Below the pieces are notes generated by a model, which did no database searches, was not told the DNA's origin, and worked only from the letters and a program-made list of their open reading frames with translations. Of a stretch of 64,000 nucleotides of DNA, positions 5,802-64,000 are shown piece after piece. Source of the DNA: an uncultured Candidatus Saccharibacteria bacterium (lineage in GTDB: Bacteria > Patescibacteriota > 4484-211 > JAGQKX01); the NCBI GenBank assembly GCA_964392315.1, contig CAYMOT010000001.1, positions 359,318-423,317 on the forward strand. Reading direction: 5' to 3'. A program made the position numbers and the translations under genes. Numbering within the stretch: the stretch's first letter is position 1; each line of letters starts with the position of its first letter.

Positions 5802-6791
5802 ATGAAAATTGAAATTAGAACAGTAGGAGAGCTACTCATTAACGCACTACTAAACAAAAAATTTTCACGAGAGGAGGCAGAGATTGTGGCGGATGATTAC
5901 TTAGAAGGAGAGCTTCTAGGGAAACCGAGCCACGGATTGATGGCGTTCCCTGGTCTTATTGAGAAACTAGATGGGAAACGGCAGCCGTATGAGATCATAA
6001 AACAATCCCACTCTTGTGTCTTAATAGATGCAAAAGAATCACATGGCGCATACGTCGGGAGAAAGGCTGCTGATATGGCCATTGACATGTCAGAACGTGA
6101 AGGTGTGGGTGTTGCATTGATTAAAGACCAGATGACCTGGCTGCGGCCAGGAGGCATTGCGCAATATGTAGCGGATAGAGGATACATAGGTATAGTGATG
6201 AATAACGGAGGGAAACCAATGATGGCGCCACCTGGAGGATATGATCCGGTCATTGGTACCAATCCAATAGGTATAGGAATTCCGACGGATGCTGATCCAA
6301 TCGTGGCTGACATGGCAACGTCAATTAAGGCATGGGGCGAGGTGAAAATGGCAGAAAATGAGAAGAGGAAACTTCCGGAAGACATGTTTTTAGATAACCA
6401 GGGAGCGTTTGCAGCTAACCCGGAAGACGCGTATTCAGTACTACCGGCGGGTGGGTATAAAGGATTCGCCTTTGGGCTTTTGGTTGAAATTCTGACGGGA
6501 TCATTTCTCGGCAGATTAATGGGACCTGCACAGATGAACAGCGATTATAAAAAGTTAACAAGAGGTGGGGTAATACTCGTTTTGAATTCGAATTTTGGTA
6601 CAACGGTAGAGTTGTTTAGGTCGGCCAATAGTGAACTTGTTAATAACATAAGATCTTCTAGAAAGCTAAAAGATGTAGATGAGATTCTCGTTCCTGGTGA
6701 GAGTGCATTGAGAACGAAGCGTGCGTTTGAGAAGGATGGATGCATAGATATTGACAATACGTTATGGGAGCGGCTTGAAGGTTTGGCCTAA
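5802..6791 (+). CDS. Ldh_2 family malate/L-lactate (sulfolactate-type) dehydrogenase
   Basis: 329 aa with ..KPSHGL.. and ..IGTNPIGIGIP.. motifs typical of the Ldh_2 (PF02615) family. Confidence 0.6.
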   Translation: MKIEIRTVGELLINALLNKKFSREEAEIVADDYLEGELLGKPSHGLMAFPGLIEKLDGKRQPYEIIKQSHSCVLIDAKESHGAYVGRKAADMAIDMSEREGVGVALIKDQMTWLRPGGIAQYVADRGYIGIVMNNGGKPMMAPPGGYDPVIGTNPIGIGIPTDADPIVADMATSIKAWGEVKMAENEKRKLPEDMFLDNQGAFAANPEDAYSVLPAGGYKGFAFGLLVEILTGSFLGRLMGPAQMNSDYKKLTRGGVILVLNSNFGTTVELFRSANSELVNNIRSSRKLKDVDEILVPGESALRTKRAFEKDGCIDIDNTLWERLEGLA

Positions 6792-11794: not shown

Positions 11795-13877
11795 TACTTA
11801 CTTGCTGGGGTGGAGTAAGAGGAATACTAAAGCTAAATGTCGATCCCTTATCTACCTCCGATTGAACCCAGATTGTACCATGGTGTAATTCAACAATTGC
11901 CCGAGTGATATATAAGCCTAGCCCTGTCCCTTTGTTTTGTGTAGAAAGCCTATTATCTACCCGATAGAACTTTGAGAACAGTTGCGGAAGTGACTTCTGG
12001 GGAATCCCTACGCCGGTGTCTTGTACATGGGTGATAATGGCTGTCTCAGTCAATTCGGTAGAGACGTATACATTTCCTCCCACTTCTGTATATTTTATGG
12101 CGTTTGAGATAAGGTTCATCAGCACCTCAGACATCCTCAACTTATCTACAAAAATTGTTGGGAATTCCTGCATTGGTTCCTGTAAGTGTACAGTTATTTT
12201 TTTCTCTTTTGCCTGGAAACGAAACTCGTCCACGATGTCTCTTAAGAGTTTTATCCAGTTTACATTTTCTGGATGCAGTTCTAAGGTACTTCTTTCAAGT
12301 CGTGTAACATTGAGTAAGTTATCAACAAGGGATGCAAGTTGCTGTGCGGATATTTGTACGCGTTGTAAGAAGGTGTTTTCTTCTTCACCAAATCGGTCAC
12401 TGAATTCACTCAGTATCACAGACATGTACCCATTGATTGCAGTCAAAGGCGTGCGAAGCTCATGTGCTGCCATTGATACGATATCAAGTTTCATGGTTTC
12501 GATCTGATGTTCTTTTGTTGCATCATGGAGTGCAACGATATATGTAGCAGTGGGTTGACTGCTCTCGTGGATGATTGTGGCAGTGAGGTTTACAATCCGT
12601 ATGTTCTGTCCCTTGGTGGTTAAATTGAGAAGATTCTTCTCGACGGTGTTTGGAGTTTCTTGTAAAGGCGTTGGAACAGGTCGGCAATAATCGTCAGAAA
12701 AATAGTGGTTGCCATCCTTATCTGTAAGCTGGATGATAGCATCGATAGGCTTGTTGAGAACTTCTGACTCTTTCCATCCCGTGATACGTTCCATTGCTTC
12801 ATTGAAGACAATGATGTTTTTTTGCTCATCAAGCGCGACGACTCCATCGATAACTCCGGCTATAACGGCATCGAGCTTATTGCGTTCTGTTTTTAGCAAG
12901 ACTTGCTCTTTGCTTAATTCATTCATTGACGCTTGTAACTTTTGCTGGACCTCTGATAGCTGAGTGACCATCTCGTTTGAATAACGTGCCACGTCAGATA
13001 TTTCGTCGTTAGTTATCATGTGCAACTTGCTATTTGTATCCCCCTGCCTAACATGTTTACTCCATTCAATTGTTTTCTTTAAAGGGTCGGTGAGGGTACG
13101 AGAAGCAGCAGGTGCAAGCACAATAAGATACACGGCATTAAGTCCGATGAGGATTAGGGTGTATACTGAATATTCCATGAATCTGCTGTAGTTGTAGAGA
13201 TAGGTAATTGTTAAGAAAAAGAGAAAGATAGTAGCTTGACCAGCGAGTGCAGTAATGAGTGCAAAAAACAGGACTTTTCGTCCGAGTGGGATTGAACGTA
13301 TTGGGATTTGCTGCTTATCCAGGTTGGGGTATTTGCTCATCAGATACTCAGTATCTTTGCTGAGTCGTTGTTCCATGAAGATTATATTCAAGAGTGATTC
13401 GGTGATCGAAACGATCACACCTAGAACTACTGCGGCAGATCCCGCTAATGTGGTGATTTCTCCTAACTCGGGAATGATGCGCATCCAGAGAAGTAACGCT
13501 GCAAACAGAAAGGCAGATGTTACAACGAAAAATATTTTAATACCGGTATAAACTGGGTAATTAATCATGAACGCGAGAAGCTTCACGATATCTTCATCAG
13601 TGGTGGCTTCATTGGTCATGATCCTTTTACTAATCGCCCACGCAGGTTTATATGTTACATGAGGGAAGATGCCAAAAAAGGGTACGTATATGAATGCGTA
13701 GGTGCCCAAATACAAAAGTATAATTTTGACGAATACCGCGGTACCTACTTGCCATGAAATAATCATGAGGAGTGCGAGTGGAAGGCCAAAAAACAGGTTT
13801 GAAAGTGCTTCGGATTTCCAGTGAATTTTCGATAATTCCCACGGTGTCGTGAGCTGGTATTGGGCAGATTCTTGCAT
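11775..13877 (-). CDS. membrane-bound PAS-domain sensor histidine kinase
   Basis: Multiple N-terminal TM helices, a PAS region, H-box HELRTPLTAINGY and G-box GTGLGLYITRAIVELHHG. The 3' end overlaps the pyk start by 20 nt. Confidence 0.85.
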   Translation of the reverse strand: MQESAQYQLTTPWELSKIHWKSEALSNLFFGLPLALLMIISWQVGTAVFVKIILLYLGTYAFIYVPFFGIFPHVTYKPAWAISKRIMTNEATTDEDIVKLLAFMINYPVYTGIKIFFVVTSAFLFAALLLWMRIIPELGEITTLAGSAAVVLGVIVSITESLLNIIFMEQRLSKDTEYLMSKYPNLDKQQIPIRSIPLGRKVLFFALITALAGQATIFLFFLTITYLYNYSRFMEYSVYTLILIGLNAVYLIVLAPAASRTLTDPLKKTIEWSKHVRQGDTNSKLHMITNDEISDVARYSNEMVTQLSEVQQKLQASMNELSKEQVLLKTERNKLDAVIAGVIDGVVALDEQKNIIVFNEAMERITGWKESEVLNKPIDAIIQLTDKDGNHYFSDDYCRPVPTPLQETPNTVEKNLLNLTTKGQNIRIVNLTATIIHESSQPTATYIVALHDATKEHQIETMKLDIVSMAAHELRTPLTAINGYMSVILSEFSDRFGEEENTFLQRVQISAQQLASLVDNLLNVTRLERSTLELHPENVNWIKLLRDIVDEFRFQAKEKKITVHLQEPMQEFPTIFVDKLRMSEVLMNLISNAIKYTEVGGNVYVSTELTETAIITHVQDTGVGIPQKSLPQLFSKFYRVDNRLSTQNKGTGLGLYITRAIVELHHGTIWVQSEVDKGSTFSFSIPLTPPQQVSNANVQQ

Positions 13878-13957: not shown

Positions 13958-14542
13958 ATGAGTTCCGTTATACACGCTCGCATAAATGATGTGCTTTCAA
14001 TCTTTGTGGCAATTTTAGGTGTATATCTGGTCGTGAAGCCGTTTTATCCAGAATTACAGTTTGTTTACCAAAAAGAACTCATACATGCCGATGATGCGTT
14101 GAAGGGGATAATCGATGTACCGGGTCAGCCTGTTGATGAAGATGCTCCAGCTGATAATCGACTAATTATTCCGGGGATTTTAGTGGACGCACCAATACTA
14201 GTAGGTGATTCTCCAAATTTATTGCACCAAGGAATATGGCATCGGCCTCATACAAGTACTCCTAATGAGGGCGGCAATAGCGTTTTTGTGGCACATAGAT
14301 TCCAATATACGAGTGGTCCAAATACGTTTTATCATCTTGATAAAGTGGCGGTGGGTGAGCAATTCGTCATATATTGGGAGAAGAAGAAATATACGTATGA
14401 GGTTTTTGTAACCGAAGTTGTGGAGCCTGATGCTGTCTACATTGAATATCAATCTCATGAGCCAATAGTAACTTTGTATACCTGTACGCCACTATGGACT
14501 GCCCAGAAGCGCCTAGTAGTAAGAGCAAAGCTTGTCAGCTAA
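13958..14542 (+). CDS. sortase (class E/F-like transpeptidase)
   Basis: N-terminal TM anchor, His region VFVAHR, the TLxTC active-site motif as TLYTCTP, and a downstream conserved Arg (RLVVRAKL). Confidence 0.7.
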   Translation: MSSVIHARINDVLSIFVAILGVYLVVKPFYPELQFVYQKELIHADDALKGIIDVPGQPVDEDAPADNRLIIPGILVDAPILVGDSPNLLHQGIWHRPHTSTPNEGGNSVFVAHRFQYTSGPNTFYHLDKVAVGEQFVIYWEKKKYTYEVFVTEVVEPDAVYIEYQSHEPIVTLYTCTPLWTAQKRLVVRAKLVS

Positions 14543-14551
14543 ATTATTGAG

Positions 14552-14662
14552 ATGTCTGAGACAAAACGAACCATCATATTAATACTGCTTGTTATTGTAG
14601 GGGTTGTTACCATTCTCTGGGTGCAGGGAAATTACGACCGAAACTTTCTAGACACGTTGTAT
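14552..14662 (+). CDS. possible 36-aa single-TM micro-protein between sortase and its substrate
   Basis: ATG ORF giving MSETKRTIILILLVIVGVVTILWVQGNYDRNFLDTLY. It is below the ORF-track size cutoff. Support is only its hydrophobic core and its position. Confidence 0.2.
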
Positions 14663-14671
14663 TAGAAGAAT

Positions 14672-15952
14672 TTGAGGTTGACATACGCAAGTACTACAGC
14701 TTATGCTGAATACGTGCGGAGATTATTTACTTACTGCCTGTACACCATAACATTTGTAATTGTTGCTAGTTCTTTCCACACAGCTCAGGCTGCTACTCAA
14801 ACACATACCTGCGTTGTTGCCCGTTCTCGACTGGATTGGAGGGTAGATAGCTCGACTGGGTCGGATACGACCAAACACTGCGTTCTCCCTCAGTTTGATA
14901 CCTCACTTGGCGTACTTACAAAAGCTGATCTATCTGTAAGTGCAGATACAGATACCCAACAGAAAGTAGAAAATAAAGATGTTTCCCCGCACACCATGAC
15001 GACTGACGTGACGGTGAAACTCGATGTGCAAAGAAATGATGGTACTGGTTTATTGTCAGTTTCTATCCCTACATCAGATGAAACTTTTCCTGCTTCAGCA
15101 TTTGACGGTACGTTAGATTACGCTGGCACGTCGGGAAAGACGTTTGACGTACAAACAGGCGAGGCAACCAAAACACACACATTCACCGCCGAAAGCGATT
15201 TGGCAATGTTTATGGGTACAGGTTCATATGACTTTCCTCTCCTGGCGGAAGCGTTATGGAATTGTAGTGGGTCTGGGAATGCTGCGTGTGAAGTTGATAC
15301 CTATGCAGCGGCGGCTATGACGATAACGTATTCATATACTCCACCTGCGCCTGATATCGTATTTAACAGCTGCAATATGCCTGAGGTACGTAATGGAGAA
15401 TCCAAAGAATACATCATTACCAGTGCCAACCAAGGTAACGCACCAATAACCGAAACAATTACAATTACTGATCAGTTGCCAAAGTGCTTGTCATTCGTTA
15501 GTTCAGAGAATGGCCAATGGAGTTGTACAGCGGATGCAAACCAACTTGTTACCTGTGAATTCAAGGGAACTGTACCAGCAGGCGCATTTTTGCCTGATTT
15601 ACCCGTCACGGTAAGTGCAGATGGATGTATTGCATCTAGTGTACTGTCGCATACAATACGCGTTTCTACAGAAGGGGAGATACACACAGCAAACAATAGT
15701 CTTGCATGTTCGGGAGTATTGGCCCAAAGTGTGCACCCTACTGCAGAGCCTACTCCGCAGGTATCCCCAACTCAGGAACCTGCTCCATCCCCTACTCCGA
15801 CACCTGCAGTGCTTGGTGATTCTGAGGGCCCACGTGTACTTGCCGCAACAGGCCTGAAAATTATCTTGCCGATAGTAATTGGTGGTTTGCTTATTCTTGG
15901 AGTGATTCTTCTCCGCCGCCGGAAGGCACCTGCTAAGGTCTTAGATAACTAA
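14672..15952 (+). CDS. cell-wall-anchored surface protein with an LAATG sortase sorting signal
   Basis: N-terminal signal peptide (..FHTAQAATQ..). C-terminus is a P/T-rich linker, LAATG (nt 15838..15852), a hydrophobic segment and an RRRK tail. Sits immediately downstream of the sortase gene. Confidence 0.7.
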   Translation: MRLTYASTTAYAEYVRRLFTYCLYTITFVIVASSFHTAQAATQTHTCVVARSRLDWRVDSSTGSDTTKHCVLPQFDTSLGVLTKADLSVSADTDTQQKVENKDVSPHTMTTDVTVKLDVQRNDGTGLLSVSIPTSDETFPASAFDGTLDYAGTSGKTFDVQTGEATKTHTFTAESDLAMFMGTGSYDFPLLAEALWNCSGSGNAACEVDTYAAAAMTITYSYTPPAPDIVFNSCNMPEVRNGESKEYIITSANQGNAPITETITITDQLPKCLSFVSSENGQWSCTADANQLVTCEFKGTVPAGAFLPDLPVTVSADGCIASSVLSHTIRVSTEGEIHTANNSLACSGVLAQSVHPTAEPTPQVSPTQEPAPSPTPTPAVLGDSEGPRVLAATGLKIILPIVIGGLLILGVILLRRRKAPAKVLDN

Positions 15953-34537: not shown

Positions 34538-35422
34538 TTAATAGGTGTACAGTACTTCTAAGTGGCTGGTCGTTTCATTCGAATAAAGGCCTAGTATTTG
34601 AGAGCTATTGGTGTGATTTTGTATTCGGGGGTTTTTTGTGCTGACGTTTTGCATTGTCTTGATAAATATAGCTAATGCACTTGGCGAGTCGGTATATTCG
34701 TTACCAAGCTTTATAATCGTTTCATAATCAAAATTATTAATAAATTGTATTGTTTGTTCGTCATACATTTCAGTTTTGTGTGGATATTGATAGTGTGAAA
34801 AATCAAATGCTCCTACAACCAAAACGTCTGAATCTTTGGCGTACTGTGTTAATACAGCTGCGGTCTCTTCTATTTGTGTTACGTCCAATCCATTCTTAAT
34901 GACTAAGGGAACTACAGAGGCAGAGGGGAGATAGTGTGCGATATACGGTAGAATTGCGGTAATGCCGTGTTCGTTTTGTATTATTTTTGTATCTAATGTA
35001 ACGAATTCCTGTGAGACAAACGGTGCGAGAACTGCTTGATTCGTCTTGATATTCCCCCGAGAGGTTTCAAAAATACTATCACTAGAAATAATATCTGTTG
35101 AACCTGCAGTAAAATGGTTGGGAGCTAATAAGATTATTGTATGGATTTTTTCACTCGCAATTCTTCCAAAAAAGTCAGCAATAAGGCGTCCCGCAATGGT
35201 ATGGTGGGGCACTATTCCACCTTTAATACAACATTCTGAAGTTGTGTTTTGTGTCTCGTTCACCGCTTGGTAAAAACTACCTTGATCTAACGTGGGAATA
35301 TGTATGATCTCCTGTAACGAGCTTCCAGCGCCAAGTACAGCGTCTTCCCTGTGAGGGTTTTCCTGTACATGAACGAAAATAACTGTTCCTATGAATGCAG
35401 CGAATAATAGATAGAATTTCAT
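34538..35422 (-). CDS. secreted/membrane-anchored MEMO1-family (AmmeMemoRadiSam protein B-like) protein
   Basis: N-terminal signal/TM, then ..KGGIVPHHTIAG.., ..ILLAPNHF.., ..HGITAILPY.. and ..DFSHYQ.. matching MEMO1-family motifs. There is a 4-nt overlap with the upstream A2M gene. Confidence 0.5.
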   Translation of the reverse strand: MKFYLLFAAFIGTVIFVHVQENPHREDAVLGAGSSLQEIIHIPTLDQGSFYQAVNETQNTTSECCIKGGIVPHHTIAGRLIADFFGRIASEKIHTIILLAPNHFTAGSTDIISSDSIFETSRGNIKTNQAVLAPFVSQEFVTLDTKIIQNEHGITAILPYIAHYLPSASVVPLVIKNGLDVTQIEETAAVLTQYAKDSDVLVVGAFDFSHYQYPHKTEMYDEQTIQFINNFDYETIIKLGNEYTDSPSALAIFIKTMQNVSTKNPRIQNHTNSSQILGLYSNETTSHLEVLYTY

Positions 35423-38400
35423 CGAGGTTTAATTAGTATAGAGGTGCTCTTTCCTATTGCTCTATCTGATAGTACCTTGTCAGACTGAAATACCGTACCG
35501 TCAAAGACGTAGGTCCCGGGGGATGATACACGCGCGTAGTAGATGAGGGTGCCTGATGCCGTTCTGTTTGTGCTTGTCACCGGCACGCAATAATAAACAG
35601 CGTTTTCATCAATTCTGTAAGGATAGATTTGATCATTTGGAATATAGCCATAGTCACGATATGAGCGAGAAACTGCTTTAAGTCCTGATGGCAAGTAATC
35701 GACAACTGAGTAGCATCCTTCATTGCCGTCTTCTATACGATAGGGAATCTCAACACGCACAATATTGTCTTCATAAATTTCTTTTGAATCCTGTTTTGTG
35801 CTATCACCAGCAAATATGGCACGTTCAATTTTGGTAATATGGGTGTCATTAGGTTGCTGGAAAGCGCTGGCCCATTCTAATGTTGCTCCGACATCGCCTG
35901 AGATATCCTTAAATACAACCTGTGGTGCTTGGTCAGGTTGCACCACAAACGCATGTACTGCTCCATTCGCCAGTTCTATTGCATACTCGGTGCCATCAAG
36001 AACATACGTAACCCTTGAAGGCTCTGTGGATAGGTTGGGTACCTTTTTCATTAGGTAGAAGAGTGATTCGAGCTGTGTTGTGGCGTCATTTGATTGGTAT
36101 TCGGTAATATATTGAAACATTCCTTCCGCACGCGGATCGTCGAGTATGGTACCTACGATCATTGCAAGTGCAGTGCTGGTTATTGATGTATCTTGTGAAT
36201 CACCTGAAATTATTCGTATGTATGGTGTGGCTTCTTCGCCATGCTTTTCTAGTATATCTTTGTATTCTGTATAACCTCGCTCAAAATCTCCCAATATTGC
36301 AAGCCCAATAACAAGTTGCAAGCGTTGGTCGATAGAGAGGTCAAGATTATCAAGTGCGGTATAGACTTCCTGTAATACTGGTTCATTGAGTGCAGCTGAA
36401 CCGAGAAGTGACGATGTTAGTTCGTCATATGATGAGCGCTCTCTTATCCTGAAACCTTCAAAATAAGCAGAGAGTGCGGTACGGTCAAATTTATCTGCTG
36501 CAACAACGGCTAATCTTGCAGATACTATTGGGTCAGGTGCGCCATATGGTAGGAGTGCAATACCATCTTGTTCATATTCACCAGATGTGAACGGTGATTC
36601 TGGTAAATTTGCATTGAAATGTGCGTTGAGCTGTTCTCGGGCCAGGTTACGGACCAAGGCATAGTCAACACGTTCGTTCTGTAGCCATGCCAAATAATTG
36701 AGTTCAGCATAATAGCGATTACGTTGGGCATTTGCGAGTGTTACGGTTGTAGGTTGCTGAATATTTTCTAACCGAGTGTCTGGTGTGATCGGAATATCAG
36801 TAATATTTTTTTGATACGTCCGTGAATGAAGAACCTCAAAGGTTCGCATGACCGTATCCGAACCTTTTTCAGTACGAGCCTCAACGGTCAGCTGATGGTT
36901 CCCTATCGTTAATTCGGGAAGTTGTATCAGGACTTGCTCAAAAGCTTTTTGGGTGTATTCATGGGGGGAATCCCAGCCGAGTGATGGGATACTTACCGAA
37001 TATTTTATTTCATCATTGGCAGTTAGGGCGCTTCCAAACGTACGCAGTGATATGCTAGGGGCATCTCCGATGACATAGGTGTTATTCATGGATGGCTGCA
37101 CAAAGACTGGTTTTGTTGTGTATACCAAAGACTTTCCGGTGCCAACCAAGAGATCATTGGTTACGCCATGGTAGGTGAGCCTCCACTGTGTTAGGTTATC
37201 TGGTAATGCAAATTTTGCAATTCCTTTGCCGGTGTTATTGGTCGTTACTGAACCAAAAAATGGTGTGTCAACAAAAACACTTCGCGTACCATCCTTGCTG
37301 TTATGGACGTAGATATTGTTTGCAATAAATGTATGGTTCTTTTCAATATGAAGATTATAGACGGTAAATGTGCCATATTCTTTTCGTATTGAGGTTATAG
37401 TCACTGGTTTGCCGTTGCTATCTATGAGCGAATCGCCTATTTTTGCTGATCCAATAGGCATCCATGAATTATTGATAAATACAACATGTTCAGGGGTAAC
37501 CTTGAGATGTTCGTTTATAACCAATATCTGAGAAACCGTATGTACATCAACTCCCGTTACGGTATCCTCGATCAGTCCGTTCTCCCGCGACGCTCCGAAA
37601 GTAAATATCGTATCGCCAGTTTGTATATCTTTAATAGGCTTTGTTTGAGTAGGCGATATCGCTATTGGTGTGTCACCTGTAAAACACGCTGCTCCCATTT
37701 CTCCTGCAGATCTGTCGAGGGGATATTGGTGTGTGGCATATGAAAAAGAAATACCAGAATCCACCGTTTGGTAGATGTCGCTCACAGGTTGAGTATACTG
37801 TTCACTTACGGCAAAAACTGCTTCATCCACGACGCTAAAATTAACCAGTGCTGGCACTCCGATGCCTCCTGCATTTTTGGTTTGAATGTCTAAGACGACT
37901 TCCTCACGAGGGCCGTAGGTGCTTTTCTGTGGCTTTACATCGATAGAAAGGGTTCTGGATTCTTGGTTAACTCGTACTGAATCATCCATCACGCGATACG
38001 TCGTACCGTCAAAATATATTACTACTATAGTGATGTTGGGTAGATCTTTTTCCGAGTACGTGAAGCTATATTCTGGTGAAGATGATAAGCGAATATCGCG
38101 AATACCTCTTTGTGCCTTAATGTAGAGGAATTTTTTAGTACCTGTATCGGTCATTGGCGCGCCATCCTTGAGGGCAGCTAGGGTAACATCCTCTCCGATT
38201 GTGTACCCTTCTTGTTGACCTTGTTGGTTCTTATGATGGAGAGAATAACCATCCTGCGAATAAAAAGTATCATACCGTGACCAGTTATAGGCGGTCGTTG
38301 CTTCTCTATCAATCCGGCCTTGTGCATCGGTTACACTAAAGGAGATTTCGTACCACACATCCGGAATAAAGGTGCGGCTGTATTCTACAATACCAGCCGA

Positions 38401-40791
38401 ATTAGTTGGCCGTGTAAGCGATTCAACCGTCTTACTCACTGTATCATATCGATATTTTTTTACTACCTTTTTAGATACAAAATCGTAGTATTGCCCATCT
38501 TCTTTTTTTTCATAGTGCATTTCTTTGACGGTGATCGCGACATTCACGGGTGTATCGGGGTTCTTCCTATATGAGCTGCCAGCATTGTACGCTGCTACAT
38601 CTATCTCAGAAACGGTCGCGCTGGCTAGAAAGGAAGAATTATCTGGATAGGTAACAGTTGTTGAAACGTCGTATTCGGGACCGAACACAGTGATCGGCGC
38701 ACTCGCCTGAATTTCTGCCTCTTCGCTCAGTCGAGGTCTAATCTTCAGAATTTCTTCAGAAGGATAGTATGTACTGGCGTCATAAGTTGGGGTAAAAGGG
38801 AAAGAAAATGTACCACTCTTGTCTGCTTTTATATCGGTATTATTATACGTAAGTTCGAGGCCGGCCACCGGTGCTCCATTATAAAACTGAGCTTCACCGG
38901 TAAACTGTACTGTATCTCCCGCGAAAACACCTTTTCTGTCAGCTTGTAGCGATACGGTGTACGAAGGCTTCGTGTATGGTTTTATATGGATATACTGGGT
39001 ACGTATTCTTTGCTCACCAACAGTAAGTTCTACATAATAATAGCCGGGTGATACGTTTCGTAAGAGAAGGCTTCCTTCAAATGTTCCAAAAGGGCTAAAT
39101 GTTAGATCATTTTCTTGAAGAATAGCGGAATCCTGTGATCGTACGAGCCTGATATGTGCGTTTGTCGGCGAGTTTACTACATCACGATGCTTAAGTATTC
39201 CCCAGTAGTTAACAGTGTCGGATTGCTGATAAATCGGTTTGTCGACATATACATACGACCAATACTCTGAGTTCGTTGCCCAATACGTATGTATATCCTC
39301 AAAGGCACGGTTTTCGCCGTAGTAGGCTTGGTTAGAGGGTACTACCAGGGTTTGGCCTTCATGTTTAATGAGTAAATAGTGTAGTTTTGTAGTATCTGCT
39401 AGTAATACATTAGAGTCGAAGCTAAGGAGACCTTCACTATTGGTGCTTCCCACAGACGTGGTTGGAAGTACGGTTACCTGTGCTCCGCTGACTGGCTGTT
39501 GTGTATCGGTGGTATTAAGCCAGAGGTGTGATGTGTTTTTTGCTATTGTGTGATATGCCGTGAGAGTAGAAACCTGTATTAATACGGAACTCGTAAAATG
39601 TTCGTTTCGTGCAATTGCCAGATATTGGCCTTGTGGCAGTGGCTCGGGAAAGAGTACATATCCTTGATATTGTCCGTATTGAATGTCGCCGGTAAAAGAA
39701 GCAATTCTTTCAAGATCGGTGGTGTCTGGTTGATACACATCCCACTGCTTCGCGCTCCACGTTGGTATAGTGTCACGTCGTGTTATCTCTGCCAGGAATA
39801 GGTCTGTCGATGGGTATTTATATACTTCGACTTGGAGAGAAGTAGGACGGTCCTCACGGTAATAGTAGGAATACACACCGATTGCAGGTTCAGTGCCTGG
39901 TGCTATCTCAACTGATTGTTTGGAAAAATTAAAATAGTATTTGGAGTTGTCAGTATTTTCATCGTAATTCGATGTGGTTTCGAATCTGATTACCACATCT
40001 TCTCCGAGTTTTTCGTCACTTCCTCTAATGGGGAGGTCGCCTTTTATAGTAAATGTGTACACAGTATTCGGCTCAAGTTTTGCTGGGATAAAGACAGCGG
40101 TCTTCTGGTGTCGTTCAAATACAAGTTCAGTGGTAGGCGAGATGCTGACGTATGGTAACGGATCATTGAAGTTTTCATGACTAAAGGTCACTTCTATTCC
40201 TGAGTTTACGGGTACGTGCGTTGCCTGGTTTCGAGGAATGCTCGTTACTACCGAAAAACTGTTTTTTGTCTGGAATGCCCATTTATACGGAATGGTGTCG
40301 TCGACTCCGGCAACTACTCCCTGGGTTAACGAAAAAGTGTATACCGCGTTTTCCCTGAGGTGCTCCTGCGGTGCGACCAGTACCTCATACGGTGTTTTTT
40401 GTGTAATCTCCAGTGGTATTTCAGGTGATACAGAAAGCGATTGTTTAATCACCTCAAGTGGCAATTCCTTTTCGCTTGCTAACACAAACGTGGAGTCCAT
40501 TTCTACACCAATTGAATCACTATATTCAGCTTTCATTTCAATTTCACGGTTGGAAAGTAAGATTGGCTTTCCGTGTAATGTGACTAGCGGTGTTTCAGAT
40601 GCGGTGTTTTGCCTGTTCAAGGCATACGATAGGACGAGGACGCTGGTGAGTCCTACGATGATGAAAATGCCAAAGACCATGGGGGCGGGTAGTCTTTTAA
40701 CTTTTGTAATTATTTGTGTGAGTTTCTCGCGAAGCGGGGATCTTCTTGTTTCGGGTGTTGTAGGAGCAGGTTCGGGAAGTGTAGGATCCAT
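35419..40791 (-). CDS. membrane-anchored alpha-2-macroglobulin-family protein, thioester-less, interrupted by a mini-intein
   Basis: 1790 aa with an N-terminal cytoplasmic tail plus a TM anchor. Contains the A2M-domain signature ..VFVDTPFFGSV..GKGIAKFALPDNLTQWRL.. (compare RSDFRDTAFW...LPDSLTTWR). The thioester position reads ..LLPYGAPDP.. instead of PYGCGEQ. An in-frame Hint domain lies at aa 1036-1164. Confidence 0.7.
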   Translation of the reverse strand: MDPTLPEPAPTTPETRRSPLREKLTQIITKVKRLPAPMVFGIFIIVGLTSVLVLSYALNRQNTASETPLVTLHGKPILLSNREIEMKAEYSDSIGVEMDSTFVLASEKELPLEVIKQSLSVSPEIPLEITQKTPYEVLVAPQEHLRENAVYTFSLTQGVVAGVDDTIPYKWAFQTKNSFSVVTSIPRNQATHVPVNSGIEVTFSHENFNDPLPYVSISPTTELVFERHQKTAVFIPAKLEPNTVYTFTIKGDLPIRGSDEKLGEDVVIRFETTSNYDENTDNSKYYFNFSKQSVEIAPGTEPAIGVYSYYYREDRPTSLQVEVYKYPSTDLFLAEITRRDTIPTWSAKQWDVYQPDTTDLERIASFTGDIQYGQYQGYVLFPEPLPQGQYLAIARNEHFTSSVLIQVSTLTAYHTIAKNTSHLWLNTTDTQQPVSGAQVTVLPTTSVGSTNSEGLLSFDSNVLLADTTKLHYLLIKHEGQTLVVPSNQAYYGENRAFEDIHTYWATNSEYWSYVYVDKPIYQQSDTVNYWGILKHRDVVNSPTNAHIRLVRSQDSAILQENDLTFSPFGTFEGSLLLRNVSPGYYYVELTVGEQRIRTQYIHIKPYTKPSYTVSLQADRKGVFAGDTVQFTGEAQFYNGAPVAGLELTYNNTDIKADKSGTFSFPFTPTYDASTYYPSEEILKIRPRLSEEAEIQASAPITVFGPEYDVSTTVTYPDNSSFLASATVSEIDVAAYNAGSSYRKNPDTPVNVAITVKEMHYEKKEDGQYYDFVSKKVVKKYRYDTVSKTVESLTRPTNSAGIVEYSRTFIPDVWYEISFSVTDAQGRIDREATTAYNWSRYDTFYSQDGYSLHHKNQQGQQEGYTIGEDVTLAALKDGAPMTDTGTKKFLYIKAQRGIRDIRLSSSPEYSFTYSEKDLPNITIVVIYFDGTTYRVMDDSVRVNQESRTLSIDVKPQKSTYGPREEVVLDIQTKNAGGIGVPALVNFSVVDEAVFAVSEQYTQPVSDIYQTVDSGISFSYATHQYPLDRSAGEMGAACFTGDTPIAISPTQTKPIKDIQTGDTIFTFGASRENGLIEDTVTGVDVHTVSQILVINEHLKVTPEHVVFINNSWMPIGSAKIGDSLIDSNGKPVTITSIRKEYGTFTVYNLHIEKNHTFIANNIYVHNSKDGTRSVFVDTPFFGSVTTNNTGKGIAKFALPDNLTQWRLTYHGVTNDLLVGTGKSLVYTTKPVFVQPSMNNTYVIGDAPSISLRTFGSALTANDEIKYSVSIPSLGWDSPHEYTQKAFEQVLIQLPELTIGNHQLTVEARTEKGSDTVMRTFEVLHSRTYQKNITDIPITPDTRLENIQQPTTVTLANAQRNRYYAELNYLAWLQNERVDYALVRNLAREQLNAHFNANLPESPFTSGEYEQDGIALLPYGAPDPIVSARLAVVAADKFDRTALSAYFEGFRIRERSSYDELTSSLLGSAALNEPVLQEVYTALDNLDLSIDQRLQLVIGLAILGDFERGYTEYKDILEKHGEEATPYIRIISGDSQDTSITSTALAMIVGTILDDPRAEGMFQYITEYQSNDATTQLESLFYLMKKVPNLSTEPSRVTYVLDGTEYAIELANGAVHAFVVQPDQAPQVVFKDISGDVGATLEWASAFQQPNDTHITKIERAIFAGDSTKQDSKEIYEDNIVRVEIPYRIEDGNEGCYSVVDYLPSGLKAVSRSYRDYGYIPNDQIYPYRIDENAVYYCVPVTSTNRTASGTLIYYARVSSPGTYVFDGTVFQSDKVLSDRAIGKSTSILIKPR
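37300..37686 (-). other. mini-intein (129 aa, no endonuclease domain) inside the A2M-like gene
   Basis: Begins with Cys (..GAA|CFTGDTPIAI..; block A). Block B is ..KVTPEHVVF... Blocks F/G are ..VYNLHIEKNHTFIANNIYVHN|S.. (terminal His-Asn, Ser at +1). The flanking exteins join into a continuous A2M alignment. Coordinates were verified codon by codon. Confidence 0.65.
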
Positions 40792-40960: not shown

Positions 40961-42517
40961 ATGAAAAATAATGGTTATCGTATTGTTAAGTACTCTCTCA
41001 TTGCCCTCGCGGTTGCCGGCCTTTTGGATTCACTGTATCTTACGTACGAGCATTTCAGCGGTACGATCCCTCCTTGTTCCGTAGGAGGACTGTTTGATAA
41101 TTGTGGTACCGTGCTTCGCAGCGAGTATGCTGAAATAATTGGAATACCAGTTGCGCTGTTTGGTGTTCTCCACTATTTCTTGTTAACTTCAATGTTGACT
41201 CTTGGTTATGCGTATGCACAGCAGTGGGCAATAAGATTTGCATTGGTGCTAACCATGATTGGTTTTTTGGGGTCTGGGTATTTTGTATACATCCAATTGT
41301 TTGTTCTCCGTGCGTTATGTCTCTACTGTATGATTTCTGCGATTATTTCTTTAGTGCTTCTAGTTTTGGTATGGGGCTTTGAGAGAAGGGCACGTACAGA
41401 ACTTTTCGCAGGTATCGTTGCTAATTTTTACACAAAAGTACTGAAGAGAATATTCTTTCTTTTAGATCCTGAATATATCCACACGAAAATGGTTACGCAG
41501 GGAGAATTGCTCGGGAGGTCTCCACTAAGAGGAGTCCTTGCGTGGGGTCTTGCGTACAGACCAACATCTTTGGCACAGGAATTAGCGGGAATTACATTTC
41601 TTGCCCCCGTTGGACTTGCCGCTGGGTTTGACTATAATGCACAGCTAACGCAGATATTGCCGAGTATTGGCTTTGGGTTTCATACGATTGGAACGATCAC
41701 CGCGCAAGCCTGTGAAGGGAACCCAAAACCTCGCTTAGGAAGACTGCCACGTTCACAATCACTAATGGTAAATAAAGGATTTCGTAATCCAGGAGTCGGT
41801 GCAATCGTACGTCGTTTGCAGCCCTACACATTCTCAATTCCAGTTGGCATTAGTATAGGACGAACAAATAGTGATGCACTCAATGACGTAGATGATGCTA
41901 TCGCCGATATATTGCAGGCATTCCGGACGATTGATGCGGGTTCACTTACACATGCATATTATGAATTGAACATCAGTTGTCCTAACCTAAAAGGAAGTGT
42001 CAGTTTTTACGAACCCGAATCTTTGCATAGGCTTTTATCTGCAATCAAGACAGTGCACCTCGAAAGACCCGTATTTGTAAAAATGCCAATAGAAAAATCT
42101 GACGATGAATTTTCGGCAATGCTTGAAGTAATTACTGCCTCTCAGGTGGTATCGGGAGTGATTATTGGGAATCTCCAGAAAAATCGGCAGGATGCTTCGT
42201 TTGATATCAACGAAGTATTGCGTTTCCCAAAGGGTAATTTCAGCGGCAAACCTACGTATATACGCTCGAATGAGTTGATCAAACTTACCTATCGACAATA
42301 TAAAGACACCTTGCCTATCATTGGATGTGGAGGGGTGTTTTCAGCGCAAGATGCGTATACAAAAATTACGTTGGGCGCCTCACTAGTTCAGCTTATTACT
42401 GGACTTGTGTACAGAGGACCGCAACTGGTAGCTCAGATTAATCTCGGGTTGGAAGCCCTGCTAAAGAAAAATGGTTATGAGCATATTGCTCAAGCAATAG
42501 GTTCAGCACATACGTAA
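40961..42517 (+). CDS. pyrD: VKOR-domain / dihydroorotate dehydrogenase (quinone, class 2) fusion protein
   Basis: The N-terminal ~150 aa has VKOR topology and motifs: loop Cys pair ..PPCSVGGLFDNCGTV.., ..GIPVALFGVLHY.. and a TM-embedded CxxC (CLYCMISA). The C-terminal ~360 aa is DHODH class 2: ..FLLDPEYIHT.., ..GLAAGFDYN.., ..NISCPN.. and ..IIGCGGV... Confidence 0.7.
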   Translation: MKNNGYRIVKYSLIALAVAGLLDSLYLTYEHFSGTIPPCSVGGLFDNCGTVLRSEYAEIIGIPVALFGVLHYFLLTSMLTLGYAYAQQWAIRFALVLTMIGFLGSGYFVYIQLFVLRALCLYCMISAIISLVLLVLVWGFERRARTELFAGIVANFYTKVLKRIFFLLDPEYIHTKMVTQGELLGRSPLRGVLAWGLAYRPTSLAQELAGITFLAPVGLAAGFDYNAQLTQILPSIGFGFHTIGTITAQACEGNPKPRLGRLPRSQSLMVNKGFRNPGVGAIVRRLQPYTFSIPVGISIGRTNSDALNDVDDAIADILQAFRTIDAGSLTHAYYELNISCPNLKGSVSFYEPESLHRLLSAIKTVHLERPVFVKMPIEKSDDEFSAMLEVITASQVVSGVIIGNLQKNRQDASFDINEVLRFPKGNFSGKPTYIRSNELIKLTYRQYKDTLPIIGCGGVFSAQDAYTKITLGASLVQLITGLVYRGPQLVAQINLGLEALLKKNGYEHIAQAIGSAHT

Positions 42518-60737: not shown

Positions 60738-61167
60738 TTTCTATATACCCTAATTGCCTCTTGTAAAAAAATATTTGACCGCATATTATCTTGTAGCAAC
60801 AGATAAGGTGTGTGTATATAGTAATGGGGATGGCAAAAGTCCCGAAAAAGGCTGTTAGAATGGAGTTTTCTACGAGGTGTATTTCTACCGTAAGACTGCC
60901 CCGCGATAGTGTGAGACCCGAAGCTTTCTTAACATTGTTATAGTAGGTTGAAGGATGGTCTAGTTATTTGTATTCTATAAGTAGTGCTTATAAGAATAGG
61001 CTCTGTTTATCATTGATCTTAAGGGATTGGCCATAGCTGCTATTTGGGTCACTCGATAAAGAAAATTGCCTCGGTAAACTGCTTGACTTTTTAGCAACAC
61101 GTTGATAGAGTCCAGTTATAGCGATAGACATTCGGTCTAAATACGTATAGATACCATTAGATATTTT

Positions 61168-61740
61168 ATGAGACAAACAGTAGCGAGTCCATCAGGAAGA
61201 TTTAATAAGATTGTGGCGGTTGTAAAGGATAATAAGGTAAAAATCCTTGTTACCGTTGTTGTACTTATCCTCATAGCCAACTTTTTTGCCAACAGAAATA
61301 AAAGTGAAGCTGACATCCAGCGTGTTGGTGCTCCCGTAGACATTCAACGTACTTTTTCTATCCCTGCACAAAATGATCAGGAACAAACGGTGAATAAAAA
61401 TTTGACGGTTAAAGTAACTGATGTGCAAAGACAGAAAAGAGTGCTCGTTAAGGGTAGCTGGGTTAAAGCACGTGAGGGAAAGGTCTTCCTTACGATGAAT
61501 CTTGATGTCACAAATGATGTGCGAGCAACGTTATATGGAAGTCCCGTCGATTGGGTACGTCTTGCTTCGGCTGATGATAAGAAGCTCGCTCCAACTGTCC
61601 ACCAAGGGTTAATAGAGGTTCGTCCGCAATCAACTAAAGAAACTAATGTGGGGTTTGTAGTAGACGAGAATGCAACGAACTTTAAGGTAGAGATCGGACG
61701 GGTTTGGGGATTAGAAGACACGATTGATGTTCAGTTCTAG
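61168..61740 (+). CDS. hypothetical N-terminally anchored exported protein (DUF4352-like beta-sandwich?)
   Basis: TM anchor (..ILVTVVVLILIANFF..) followed by a ~150-aa predicted beta-rich ectodomain. It lies immediately upstream of the acidic repeat-protein genes. Confidence 0.4.
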   Translation: MRQTVASPSGRFNKIVAVVKDNKVKILVTVVVLILIANFFANRNKSEADIQRVGAPVDIQRTFSIPAQNDQEQTVNKNLTVKVTDVQRQKRVLVKGSWVKAREGKVFLTMNLDVTNDVRATLYGSPVDWVRLASADDKKLAPTVHQGLIEVRPQSTKETNVGFVVDENATNFKVEIGRVWGLEDTIDVQF

Positions 61741-61805
61741 TAGAGACACATTACAAAGCAAATATTGTATTTACTGATTACTTTATCAAGGGGGGTGAGA
61801 AAAGT

Positions 61806-63008
61806 ATGAACAAAAAAACACTTACACGTATTACAGGAGCAGCTGGTGCAGGTTTAGTAGTTGCGCAAGCAATCATGCCAGCATTGGCAGCTTTTACTGT
61901 TAACATTTCTGGAAACGGCTACAACTCTGATACTGATGTAGACCTAGAATTCACATCCGAAACTGCAATTGCACAAGAAAATGACGTAAAGATCGAGAAT
62001 AAAGTTAACCTCGATGCAAACACCGGTGACAATACAGTAAGCAAAAATACAGGTGGTAGCATTGATGTGACAACTGGAAGCGTAGATCAGCACGTTGATA
62101 TCGACAACGCAGCAGGCGCTAATAGCGCAGTAGTCGAGACTTGCAATTGTGATGAGGACGTAGAAATAATCGTTTCCAAGAATGGTGCTGATTCAGAGAT
62201 AGATGTTGACTATACTCGCGAAACTACCGTTGACCTTATACAGGAAAACGACGTTGACGTAGAGAATGATGTCAACCTCGATGCTGAGACTGGTGACAAC
62301 AAGGTCACAAAAAACACTGGTGGAGACTTAAGGCTCGAAACTGGTGATGTTGACCAGGATGTTAAGATCAGCACGGAAGCAGGCGCAAACGTTGCAGATC
62401 TTGGTGGTGAAGGTAATGGTTCAGAGTTAACAATCGAAGTTTCAGAGAACGGAGCTGATAGCGAAGTTGATCTAGAAGTTGATGTTGAGACTGAACTTGC
62501 TGTTCTCCAAGAGAACGACGTTGAAGTCGAAAATGATGTAGATGCTTGGGCAGAGACTGGAGACAACAAAGTTTCCAAGAACACTGGCGGTAGCATCGAC
62601 GTTATGACAGGTGATGTAGACCAGATGGCAGAAATCGAAAACGCTGCTGGAGCTAACACGCTTGTTGCAGACGCATGCGGCTGCGAATTAGATGGTTCAG
62701 TACTCGTTGAGAAGAACGGTGCTGATGCCGAGGTAGACTTCGATCTGGTCTGGGAAATGATTTCCGATTTCATCCAGGGCGGCGGAAAGAGCGAGACTGA
62801 ACTCGAATCTGATGTCGACTTTGATGGAGAGACCGGAGATAACGACGTTACCAAAAACGGTGGTGACGATATGGAAACTGGCAACGTAAGCCAAACCACT
62901 AAGGTTGCGAACGAAGCTGGTGCTAACGTCATCGGTGGCGAAGCTGATGCTGACGTAGAAGTAAACTTAAGCTTACTTCTTGATCTCTTAGAGATGCTTC
63001 TCGGCTAA
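61806..63008 (+). CDS. secreted, highly acidic tandem-repeat protein (unknown family)
   Basis: Signal peptide (..AGAGLVVAQAIMPALAAFT..). Four ~90-aa repeats share QENDV(K/D/E)(I/V)EN(K/D)V(N/D)LDA(N/E)TGDN.V.KNTGG....TG.VDQ....I.NAAGAN and ..KNGADSE(I/V)D.. with recurring CNC/CGC Cys pairs. C-terminus is a hydrophobic ..NLSLLLDLLEMLLG. Confidence 0.6.
   Translation: MNKKTLTRITGAAGAGLVVAQAIMPALAAFTVNISGNGYNSDTDVDLEFTSETAIAQENDVKIENKVNLDANTGDNTVSKNTGGSIDVTTGSVDQHVDIDNAAGANSAVVETCNCDEDVEIIVSKNGADSEIDVDYTRETTVDLIQENDVDVENDVNLDAETGDNKVTKNTGGDLRLETGDVDQDVKISTEAGANVADLGGEGNGSELTIEVSENGADSEVDLEVDVETELAVLQENDVEVENDVDAWAETGDNKVSKNTGGSIDVMTGDVDQMAEIENAAGANTLVADACGCELDGSVLVEKNGADAEVDFDLVWEMISDFIQGGGKSETELESDVDFDGETGDNDVTKNGGDDMETGNVSQTTKVANEAGANVIGGEADADVEVNLSLLLDLLEMLLG
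61960..62950 (+). repeat. in-frame tandem repeat array (about 258-270-nt period, ~3.7 copies) within the acidic repeat-protein gene
   Basis: Repeat starts at about 61965, 62235, 62493 and a partial one at ~62800 (QENDV.VEN motif). Copies are diverged at the nucleotide level. Confidence 0.6.
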
Positions 63009-63025
63009 TGATCGCTACATGGGTA

Positions 63026-63065
63026 TGACCCCGCATATGTAAATCACATATGCATCATGGGGTCA
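63026..63065. repeat. long imperfect palindrome / stem-loop between the two repeat-protein genes
   Basis: TGACCCC-GCATATGT-aaatc-ACATATGC-atcat-GGGGTCA. The inner 8-bp arms form a perfect inverted repeat and the outer 7-bp arms are also complementary. It lies 18 nt after the stop of the first gene and no strong T-tract follows. Confidence 0.4.
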
Positions 63066-63128
63066 CCCGGTTGGGTATCAATCAAAATGGTACATAACCG
63101 AGTGACTCTAAAAATATAGGAATAACTT

Positions 63129-64000
63129 ATGAAATATCGGACATCTATAAAAACAGCTCTTGTTGCGTTCCTTATATTAAATATTGTTTTGCAAGGAAGC
63201 GGTGTGTTCATGCTGAACACATACGCTGCTCCGTCATACCCATCACGCCCAGATGAGCCAGACGCACCTACGGCACCAGATGATCCTCGTACACCAACGC
63301 CAACACCAACGCCACGGCCAACCCGTATTCCGACGCCGACTCCTACACCTACTGCTATACCAACACCCACCCCTACACCAGACCCAAGTGTGCAAGGTAT
63401 TCAAACAGAGAATGAAGAAGCATCAATTACGCCGACACCTACGCCCATTAATGTGGTGAAAGATACTGCTACTGAGAATGCAGCACTGGCACCTACCTAT
63501 TCCGGGTACGAGGAAAATAGTGGGAATCAGAAAAGTAACGATAATGTCGATGGTCCAGTGGTTATAGATACGGGAGATGCAGAAGTACAAGCTAACCTGT
63601 CGAATCAAGCAAATATCAATACCTTTGGTAATCCTACAACCGATGGACAAGACGTGGTTGCGGTCATAGAAGAAAATGGCGCTGATTCTGGAAATGTCAT
63701 TGATATTTTGGACGATACCGTACAAGAAGTTTCTCAGACCAACAATCTTGAGGCAAACAATATAATTGATGCAGATGTAAACACCGGCAAAAATACCATT
63801 ATTAATAACCTCGGTGGTGGAAGTACTATTACAACGGGTGACGCTACTGCGAATGTAAATGTTATAAATTTTGGTAACGTAAATATGGCAGGTGTTGGGG
63901 TAGCTGAGTATAACGTATTTGACCCAACCGGGGGAGATATTTACCTTGACGATCTTTCGTATATTCCCGCAGAAGTTTTAGCACAAATAAATAAAAATGG
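63129..64000 (+). CDS. second secreted acidic repeat protein (paralog of 61806..63008), truncated at the 3' end by the window edge
   Basis: ATG at 63129. Signal peptide MKYRTSIKTALVAFLILNIVLQG.., then a PTPTPTP-type Pro/Thr linker, then the same motif family (..EENGADSGNVIDIL.., ..NNLEANNIIDADVNTGKNTIINNLGGGSTITTGDATANVNV..). It is absent from the ORF track because it has no stop inside the window. Confidence 0.55.
   Translation, partial: MKYRTSIKTALVAFLILNIVLQGSGVFMLNTYAAPSYPSRPDEPDAPTAPDDPRTPTPTPTPRPTRIPTPTPTPTAIPTPTPTPDPSVQGIQTENEEASITPTPTPINVVKDTATENAALAPTYSGYEENSGNQKSNDNVDGPVVIDTGDAEVQANLSNQANINTFGNPTTDGQDVVAVIEENGADSGNVIDILDDTVQEVSQTNNLEANNIIDADVNTGKNTIINNLGGGSTITTGDATANVNVINFGNVNMAGVGVAEYNVFDPTGGDIYLDDLSYIPAEVLAQINKN

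Follow-up and report, generated by a model that had tools for sequence, protein, structure and literature searches.

The DNA analysed here, referred to throughout as the window, is a stretch of 64,000 nucleotides (nt) from an uncultured Candidatus Saccharibacteria bacterium, and its last few thousand nucleotides belong to a four-gene cell-envelope cassette of the candidate phyla radiation (CPR, or Patescibacteria): a gene for a DUF4352-like membrane protein followed by three paralogs, A, B and C, built from one long repeat. In our preferred reading, to which we assign a probability of roughly one half, A, B and C form a surface layer or fibre anchored in wall and membrane, with A as the free subunit and B and C as its anchors. 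An earlier note on this DNA had pointed to two consecutive signal-peptide repeat genes, the second cut by the window end, and the table of open reading frames (ORFs) and the sequence both agree. The full length of B, together with C and the genes downstream, was read from a near-identical strain (locus L001), which has 0 mismatches to the window over 62001-64000. Over window positions 61001-62000 the two differ at 12 positions, located in the end of the leader, the DUF4352-like gene and the start of A. The elements of the cassette within the window are as follows.

60738 to 61167, + strand: spacer of 430 nt, the ORF-free leader 5' of the cassette
61168 to 61740, + strand: DUF4352-like gene, 190 amino acids (aa), N-terminal transmembrane (TM) segment, beta-rich, first gene of the cassette (Pfam, BLASTP)
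61806 to 63008, + strand: gene A, 400 aa, secreted, unanchored, four repeats (ORF table, repeat analysis)
61806 to 61889, + strand: signal peptide of A, aa 1-28, predicted cleavage between PALA and AF (sequence, family conservation)
61893 to 62159, + strand: A repeat 1, aa 30-118, with C113-N-C115 at its end
62160 to 62426, + strand: A repeat 2, aa 119-207, with a Gly-rich linker at its end
62427 to 62693, + strand: A repeat 3, aa 208-296, with C291-G-C293 at its end
62694 to 62960, + strand: A repeat 4, aa 297-385, more diverged
62961 to 63005, + strand: C-terminal tail of A, acidic, then an amphipathic helix (..VEVNLSLLLDLLEMLLG)
63033 to 63110, + strand: RNA hairpins 3' of A, at 63033-63053 and 63058-63110, without a U-tail (folding)
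63129 to 64000, + strand: 5' part of gene B, 290 of 770 aa, cut by the window end

The repeats of A have a period of exactly 89 aa, close to the 90 aa first estimated. TGDN recurs at aa 73, 162, 251 and 343 and AGAN at aa 103, 192, 281 and 371; ungapped self-identity at a lag of 89 reaches 38%, compared with 8.7 +/- 1.7% in composition-preserving shuffles (z=17), and the second-best lag is 178. Pairwise identity between repeats is 35-54%. No DNA-level tandem repeats were detected by Tandem Repeats Finder, so the repeats reflect old divergence and not an assembly artefact. The only cysteines of A, at 113/115 (CNC) and 291/293 (CGC), follow repeats 1 and 3, just as paired cysteines had been described for alternate repeats. 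These conserved pairs may form disulfides, a plausible role because a VKOR homolog is encoded in the window (40961-42517, + strand). In this 518-aa ORF an N-terminal VKOR domain is fused to a dihydroorotate dehydrogenase domain.

The N-terminus of A is a Sec-type signal with a basic start (MNKK..R), a hydrophobic core and the PALA-AF junction; its hydrophobic segment covers aa 9-35, and a ..P-A-F-A cleavage sequence before the first repeat is conserved across the alignment of A homologs. A loose likeness to TasA/SipW-type signals had been suggested and is not supported: the signal is an ordinary AxA one and neither TasA/camelysin, Peptidase_M73 nor TIGR04088 gives a Pfam or NCBIfam match at E<=1. 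At the opposite end, the tail has a family consensus of acidic and aromatic residues followed by DLLxALGL, conserved across 72 homologs. No TM segment was called in this tail, which is too short and too acidic for a TM anchor.

The protein encoded just upstream of A has a single TM segment around aa 15-44 and is beta-rich, matching its earlier description as a membrane-anchored beta-rich protein. Its similarity to Pfam DUF4352 (PF11611) is borderline (E 1.8e-5, 25.5 bits, cut-off 25.9), and the ortholog in locus L009 does not score with this model. It presumably serves as a conserved accessory of the cassette.

What distinguishes the three paralogs is how they are held at the cell: A has no anchor, B has a TM helix and C has an LPXTG motif. 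The repeats of B align to those of A (BLASTP E 8e-19). In the window, B begins with a signal peptide and a PT-rich linker (about aa 35-110; a PT linker had been noted in the second paralog), continues with a half-repeat (aa 128-169) and a full repeat (aa 176-259), and breaks off in the start of the next repeat. The complete protein of 770 aa in L001 contains the half-repeat and four full repeats, a low-complexity spacer, a C-terminal hydrophobic helix and KKR. C, located directly after B in L001, is a protein of 391 aa with three repeats; its C-terminus, with LPMTG at aa 346, a TM helix at 356-382 and an RK-rich basic tail, is a three-part sortase sorting signal (motif, hydrophobic helix, basic tail). 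No LPXTG-type motif was found in A or B. Five of nine C-type proteins have a canonical LPxTG, the motifs of the orthologs being LPTTG, LPETG and LPVTG (twice), and the remainder carry LSDTS, LAATS or IAAAS; the C ortholog of L010 matches EF0750_LPXTG weakly, below the cut-off.

The B proteins also share a motif just before their C-terminal TM helix, which reads (I/V)N(L/I)AW(L/F)..P in L007-L013; L005, L006 and the window lineage have LNP(F/L/W) there (L001 site 13500-13633). Together with the helix and the basic cluster this gives a layout like that of a sorting signal, and no known one matches.

A sortase that could act on C is encoded in the window itself, next to another likely substrate.

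13958 to 14542, + strand: sortase gene (Pfam Sortase, E 6e-26)
14672 to 15952: gene for a DUF11 protein adjoining the sortase, 426 aa

The sortase scores 74 bits with TIGR01076 (cut-off 39), and its best sub-threshold match is to class C. The DUF11 protein ends in LAATG, a TM helix and RRRK, and the two genes (13958-15952) form a probable sortase-substrate pair. The machinery for sorting thus exists alongside at least one substrate besides C, and we infer that this sortase fixes C, whose gene follows shortly after the end of the window, to the cell wall. WWE3 and TM7 genomes have been described as containing sortases and sorted proteins (PMC3812714).

The family to which A belongs is large. 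A word-indexed search with A returned 102 homologs, nearly all of about 400 aa; few carry names, and those that do are CPR throughout (WWE3, Levybacteria or "Patescibacteria group"). A hidden Markov model (HMM) search of 1.84 billion cluster representatives yielded 3,470 proteins at E<=1e-3, counted as 50%-identity clusters, and 1,127 at E<=1e-30. Among the best 150 of the 3,470 matches almost all are full-length at 400-440 aa, and 20 cluster look-ups gave "hypothetical protein" or no name. With 12 closer A sequences, 12 related loci were found in species-representative genomes titled Saccharibacteria, WWE3, Woesebacteria, Parcubacteria or "Patescibacteria group"; five are titled "uncultured Gammaproteobacteria", which we take to be mislabels.

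A 94-position HMM of the repeat, run over all ORFs of these loci, recovered the order A-B-C in L001, L005, L006, L007, L009, L010 and L013, and A-B followed by a shortened C in L008 and L011. A has four repeats, B four to five and C three. The order of DUF4352-like gene, A and B is kept in 8 related loci, all 8 with the third paralog after B, and by BLASTP the DUF4352-like gene lies upstream of A in 9 loci. It is separated from A by 65-75 nt in L005 and L006 and otherwise by about 350-610 nt; L008 and L012 come in addition to the 8 loci, and their order fits as far as it can be read. In L008 the upstream gene matches that of L001 and has lost its place next to A, at a distance of about 540 nt; the contig of L012 ends after A. 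Downstream of C in L001 lie a CAP-domain membrane protein and then more membrane proteins, and a CAP protein is found near the cassette in four loci. The view of the genes as a self-contained cell-surface module is therefore upheld by the gene order conserved in 8 loci. The label "accessory locus", in contrast, has to be given up: judged from the 3,470 clusters, the CPR names of all named matches and the order kept in related loci, the cassette is a conserved, lineage-wide feature and not an accessory island.

Further paralogs occur around and beyond the cassette. Several lineages have an extra one near it, a protein of about 200 aa that carries a signal peptide and two repeats but lacks an anchor (L008 11878-12495, L010 13183-13788 and L011 13356-13961, all on the - strand and opposite to the cassette, and L014 6983-7570). 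A more distant two-gene cassette is present in other Patescibacteria metagenome-assembled genomes, one labelled Saccharibacteria (L015 6875-9715; L016 896-3760); it consists of a Cys-free, A-like protein of 288-304 aa with three repeats, then a four-repeat protein of 614-642 aa.

That the repeat lies outside known families, as the earlier note had it, was borne out. No significant Pfam or NCBIfam match was obtained for A, B, C and 72 homologs. Sequence and profile searches of the PDB gave nothing significant, the only match being the beta-toxin of C. perfringens (E 0.22), and the profile matched none of the PDB sequences, CsgA and FapC included, at E<=10. Sub-threshold matches to DUF3858 (E 0.002), to a TonB-like model on the PT linker and to a lectin SBD in one member were dismissed as noise. 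SLH, CWB2 and other S-layer domains of Pfam are absent from A, B, C and the 72 homologs. The curlin repeat was likewise rejected, with no Pfam Curlin_rpt match and an hhalign probability of 0.8% against E. coli CsgA. Membership in FapC, the top Foldseek match, was also set aside (E 4.6e-3 and 4e-2, probability <=0.08, TM-score <=0.11, no sequence match).

AlphaFold2, run on a 72-sequence alignment of A homologs, predicts an all-beta protein with a predicted local distance difference test score (pLDDT) of 78.9, low at residues 1-25 of the signal, and a predicted TM-score (pTM) of 0.65. In each modelled repeat a 6-residue strand, an NGADS loop and a 31-residue strand lead to TGDN and two short strands split by NTGG, and then to TGD and a 19-residue strand; after the last repeat comes a C-terminal helix (389-399), predicted with low confidence. 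The residues Q, N, N, G, N, G and N are invariant in every repeat. Across an alignment of 288 repeat units, positions alternate strictly, with V/I/L/A/T and invariant N/Q on one parity and variable residues on the other.

Mean-field coupling analysis of 987 repeat units, with a per-repeat-class control, provides a second view of the fold. The couplings form one long ladder (i+j about 110-112, positions 26-52 against 58-83), almost all of core parity, which implies that two long layers pack face to face; a short ladder joins the first strand to the start of the long strand. The strongest couplings off the ladder connect the GNGAD loop (9-13) with the DNTGG loop (53-57, 63). These loops are the most conserved exposed motifs and would sit at opposite ends if the repeat is straight-stranded, and the simplest explanation for their coupling would be a contact between subunits.

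The weak Foldseek neighbours of the model are all beta-solenoids (FapC, CsgA, SufBD, ice-binding proteins, pectate-lyase helices and bactofilin), and the root-mean-square deviation is about 40 A even with a model of two repeats (178 residues), a sign that the object is very elongated. We interpret the repeat body as a flattened solenoid of about 10-12 nm in width, in which every repeat makes up one coil of 89 residues. Its predicted core face would carry small hydrophobic residues and the invariant Asn, Gln and Gly, and the opposite face would be almost pure Asp/Glu in the window lineage. The solenoid-like fold proposed in the earlier note agrees with this prediction.

Several features of the transcript may point to a high output of A. 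A Shine-Dalgarno sequence, AAGGGGGGTGAG, lies 7 nt 5' of the ATG of A and is the strongest in the cassette. The A-B spacer (63006-63128, 123 nt) folds with -40.1 kcal/mol (z=-4.4), a stability that none of 200 shuffles reached. A strong palindrome had been claimed between the genes; the strong folding is real, and the structure consists of imperfect hairpins instead of a single perfect palindrome. In 8 of 8 other folded loci a stable hairpin of 15-25 bp follows the stop of A (z -3.4 to -9.8), mostly without a U-tail; a terminator scan did not call the A-B hairpins, the U-tail being absent. By comparison with pilus, puf and S-layer transcripts, the hairpin after A is proposed to be a 3' stabiliser or partial attenuator that would raise A over B and C.

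The 430-nt leader was also confirmed, with no + strand ORF of at least 50 aa in 60738-61167. Nothing marks it as a structured RNA, and it folds no better than shuffles (z=+0.4). It contains one sigma-70-like site (61083-61111), and such sites are no commoner than chance. The spacer is probably the promoter region and 5' untranslated region (UTR) of the first cassette gene; in sister lineages a long spacer precedes gene A instead of the DUF4352-like gene. Rfam searches of the leader, the A-B spacer, the whole window and 8 loci returned tRNAs only.

A sister clade has further RNA features of its own. The loop of its hairpin 3' of A, GCACUUC, is invariant, and the stems vary, with compensatory changes in 11 of 17 pairs. 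About 45-80 nt before the start of A, the 5' UTR contains GAAGUGC, the exact complement of this loop. A matched double change is seen in L008 (GAAGUGA with loop UCACUUC), and a change in L012 preserves G.U pairing. The 5' UTR and hairpin sites are at 6940 and 8265 in L007, 6937 and 8226 in L008, about 6921 and 8322 in L009, 6854 and 8176 in L010, 6922 and 8263 in L011, 6928 and 8266 in L012, and about 4574 and 6001 in L013. This pattern suggests that a long-range pairing of 5' UTR and 3' loop may bracket the A mRNA in the sister clade. No Rfam family matches the GAAGUGC/GCACUUC feature, and in the window lineage no such complementarity was found above chance. In L007-L011 and L013 the long spacer that separates the DUF4352-like gene from A also contains a small, conserved DUF2292-like ORF encoding about 55 aa (in L009 at 6415-6582, 55 aa, Pfam DUF2292/YezD-like with E 1.7e-7). 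It is followed by a terminator with a sequence-invariant stem, AACGGAGGC...GCCTCCGTTTTTT. Neither this ORF nor its terminator is present in the window lineage.

These observations can be combined into a scheme of assembly, in which we infer the solenoid geometry, the co-assembly and the control of stoichiometry. A, the proposed major and most abundant free subunit, would leave the cell by Sec and, lacking an anchor, be set free. B, which has the long low-complexity spacer, would be kept in the membrane by its C-terminal helix, and the sortase of the genome would transfer C through its LPXTG motif to the cell wall. The repeat bodies of B and C at the wall could then bind or nucleate free A by like-with-like contacts, so that a protein layer or fibre attached to the wall would result. 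A may become the most abundant subunit through its strong ribosome-binding site and its 3' hairpin. Each repeat would form very long strands, the repeats would stack into a flat, elongated solenoid-like body, and its acidic face may need cations.

A number of results weigh against such an assembly. Foldseek against the PDB found nothing significant (best E 4.6e-3, TM-score below 0.13), and a two-repeat fragment is modelled with lower confidence (pLDDT 69). The preference for parallel stacking over an antiparallel sheet is drawn solely from the class of the weak Foldseek neighbours, and the coupling ladder fits both geometries. Stacked Asp/Glu ladders would repel each other unless bridged by cations, and A might stay monomeric if its predicted C-terminal helix capped the body. 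As to anchoring, the curated LPXTG-anchor HMMs of Pfam and NCBIfam do not score the C protein of the window lineage, and the sortase lies 47 kb from the cassette.

The most viable alternative, which we nevertheless regard as rather unlikely, is that each paralog acts on its own, as an adhesin or a host-contact protein of a cell living as an epibiont. B and C would then display the repeat without any polymer, A would be a soluble decoy, a matrix component or a host-binding factor, and the ligand would lie on the host surface. Indeed, cultivated Patescibacteria are host-attached and rich in surface proteins (PMC11665869), and many of the weak beta-solenoid matches are adhesins, such as PfbA, Ag43, tapirin and SRRP. 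The helix that could cap the solenoid suits this idea, as does the highly variable exposed face, where outward positions are low in information and Asp+Glu (D+E) content ranges from 6 to 27%. However, the fixed length and four-repeat count of A over about 200 diverged homologs fit a building block better, the turn motifs at both ends are strictly conserved, and the fixed order of genes with two differently anchored paralogs suggests that the proteins co-operate.

It is less probable still that the proteins provide mainly a cation-binding or mineral-interacting surface, a flat array of carboxylates with Ca2+, Mg2+ or metals as ligands. These would serve in folding, as in RTX proteins, or in the buffering or nucleation of minerals at the surface. 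The composition of A invites this idea (D 13%, E 10%, V 11.5%, G 10%, N 9%), with 23% Asp+Glu, a calculated charge of about -75 at pH 7 and Asp in about half of the repeat units of the 288-unit alignment at the outward positions of the long strand. The weak fold matches also include a Ca2+-dependent beta-helical antifreeze protein (3p4g). Yet the acidity is not conserved. With some homologs at only 6-9% D+E, extreme acidity belongs to the window lineage and not to the whole family. Neither A nor B matches RTX, EF-hand or any further known motif or family for Ca2+. Moreover, cation binding leaves the anchored paralogs unexplained, and it is compatible with the structural reading. The last alternative, that the ORFs are not real genes, are in decay or stem from misassembly of low-complexity sequence, has only their unusual composition in its favour and is refuted for practical purposes. 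The identical A protein is recorded on 28 contigs and was also seen on contigs of four separate sequencing runs; length, signal peptide and invariant residues are conserved in thousands of diverged, full-length homologs, synteny is conserved and tandem repeats are absent from the DNA.

Among known systems, beta-helix and RTX proteins resemble the cassette proteins in being repeat-built beta-solenoids with Asn/Gly at the turns, and appear among the weak structural neighbours. A typical beta-helix coil has 18-25 residues, whereas the coil proposed here is about four times longer, with 89 aa and 31-residue strands, and TM-scores stay below 0.13. The earlier suggestion of an RTX beta-roll found no support either: the GGxGxDxUx nonapeptide expression matches nothing in A or B, which lack GGxGxD altogether, and has one isolated chance match in C (aa 208), and HemolysinCabind and other family HMMs give no match.

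Curli (CsgA/CsgB) and Fap (FapC/FapB), two functional-amyloid systems found in Gram-negative bacteria, come closer in logic. They too combine a secreted major subunit with a cell-associated paralog made from one imperfect repeat, with invariant Gln, Asn and Gly at fixed positions and an all-beta, solenoid-like fold, and the fibril structures of FapC and CsgA are the top, though insignificant, Foldseek neighbours. However, the repeat of CsgA measures about 22 aa against 89 aa here, and the host is single-membraned, with no CsgG/FapF-type channel, and relies on Sec export and on anchoring by TM helix and sortase. Sequence homology is not detectable. In Streptomyces, the long chaplins ChpA-C are anchored by sortase and the secreted short ChpD-H assemble on them. 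There, as proposed here, paralogs with one common domain divide the labour between a form fixed to the wall by L(P/A)xTG and a free secreted form. Chaplins are small, hydrophobic and surfactant-like, whereas the cassette proteins are large and, on the exposed face, very hydrophilic or acidic; they lack the chaplin domain of Pfam and come from another phylum. Curli/Fap and the chaplins are the closest systems in logic, and the cassette is a member of neither by sequence or by any significant match of fold.

S-layer proteins are secreted and often acidic, as is A, and the strong Shine-Dalgarno sequence and mRNA-flanking structures are signs of high expression. The cassette differs in having no SLH or other known anchoring or lattice domain, so that it would depend on separate, anchored paralogs for attachment. 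A review notes reports of S-layers in some Patescibacteria (PMC13293708). Literature searches on S-layer, fibre, amyloid or sortase-anchored repeat proteins of the CPR gave general statements only and no paper on this family, and we found none that identifies Patescibacteria S-layer proteins.

Elsewhere in the window (35419-40791, - strand) lies a gene for an alpha-2-macroglobulin-like protein of 1,790 aa with Big_5, MG2, A2M_BRD and A2M domains. Its bait region and its A2M domain are separated by a Hint/PT-HINT domain (about aa 1034-1163), an unusual, intein-like insertion.

A bolder extension of the preferred reading, doubtful as yet, is that many ultra-small CPR bacteria owe an as yet unrecognised surface layer or fibre to this cassette. 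It would follow a new principle, with thin four-coil solenoid "planks" about 12 nm wide as protomers. Such planks could stack via their open beta edges in an amyloid-like manner and join end to end via the GNGAD and NTGG turn motifs, an idea prompted by the strong covariation of these motifs despite their position at opposite ends of the predicted monomer. The sortase-anchored and membrane-anchored paralogs would nucleate this assembly and tie it to the wall.

Patescibacteria make up a large share of bacterial diversity and the cultivated ones live attached to other cells, but the proteins of their outer surface are almost unknown. The family described here is large, unnamed where checked and without a curated domain or solved fold, and it carries clear signals for export and anchoring. 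What is new is this unannotated family in a conserved envelope cassette; the construction of surface structures from anchored and free paralogs is a known theme. The repeat is a candidate for a new, very wide beta-solenoid architecture. It lends itself to a new Pfam-type domain definition and offers targets for metaproteomics and for assigning densities in cryo-electron tomography, and it may be of use as a self-assembling acidic protein scaffold. As a large unnamed family in a conserved, operon-like cassette, it is a candidate for a major envelope structure of the Patescibacteria.

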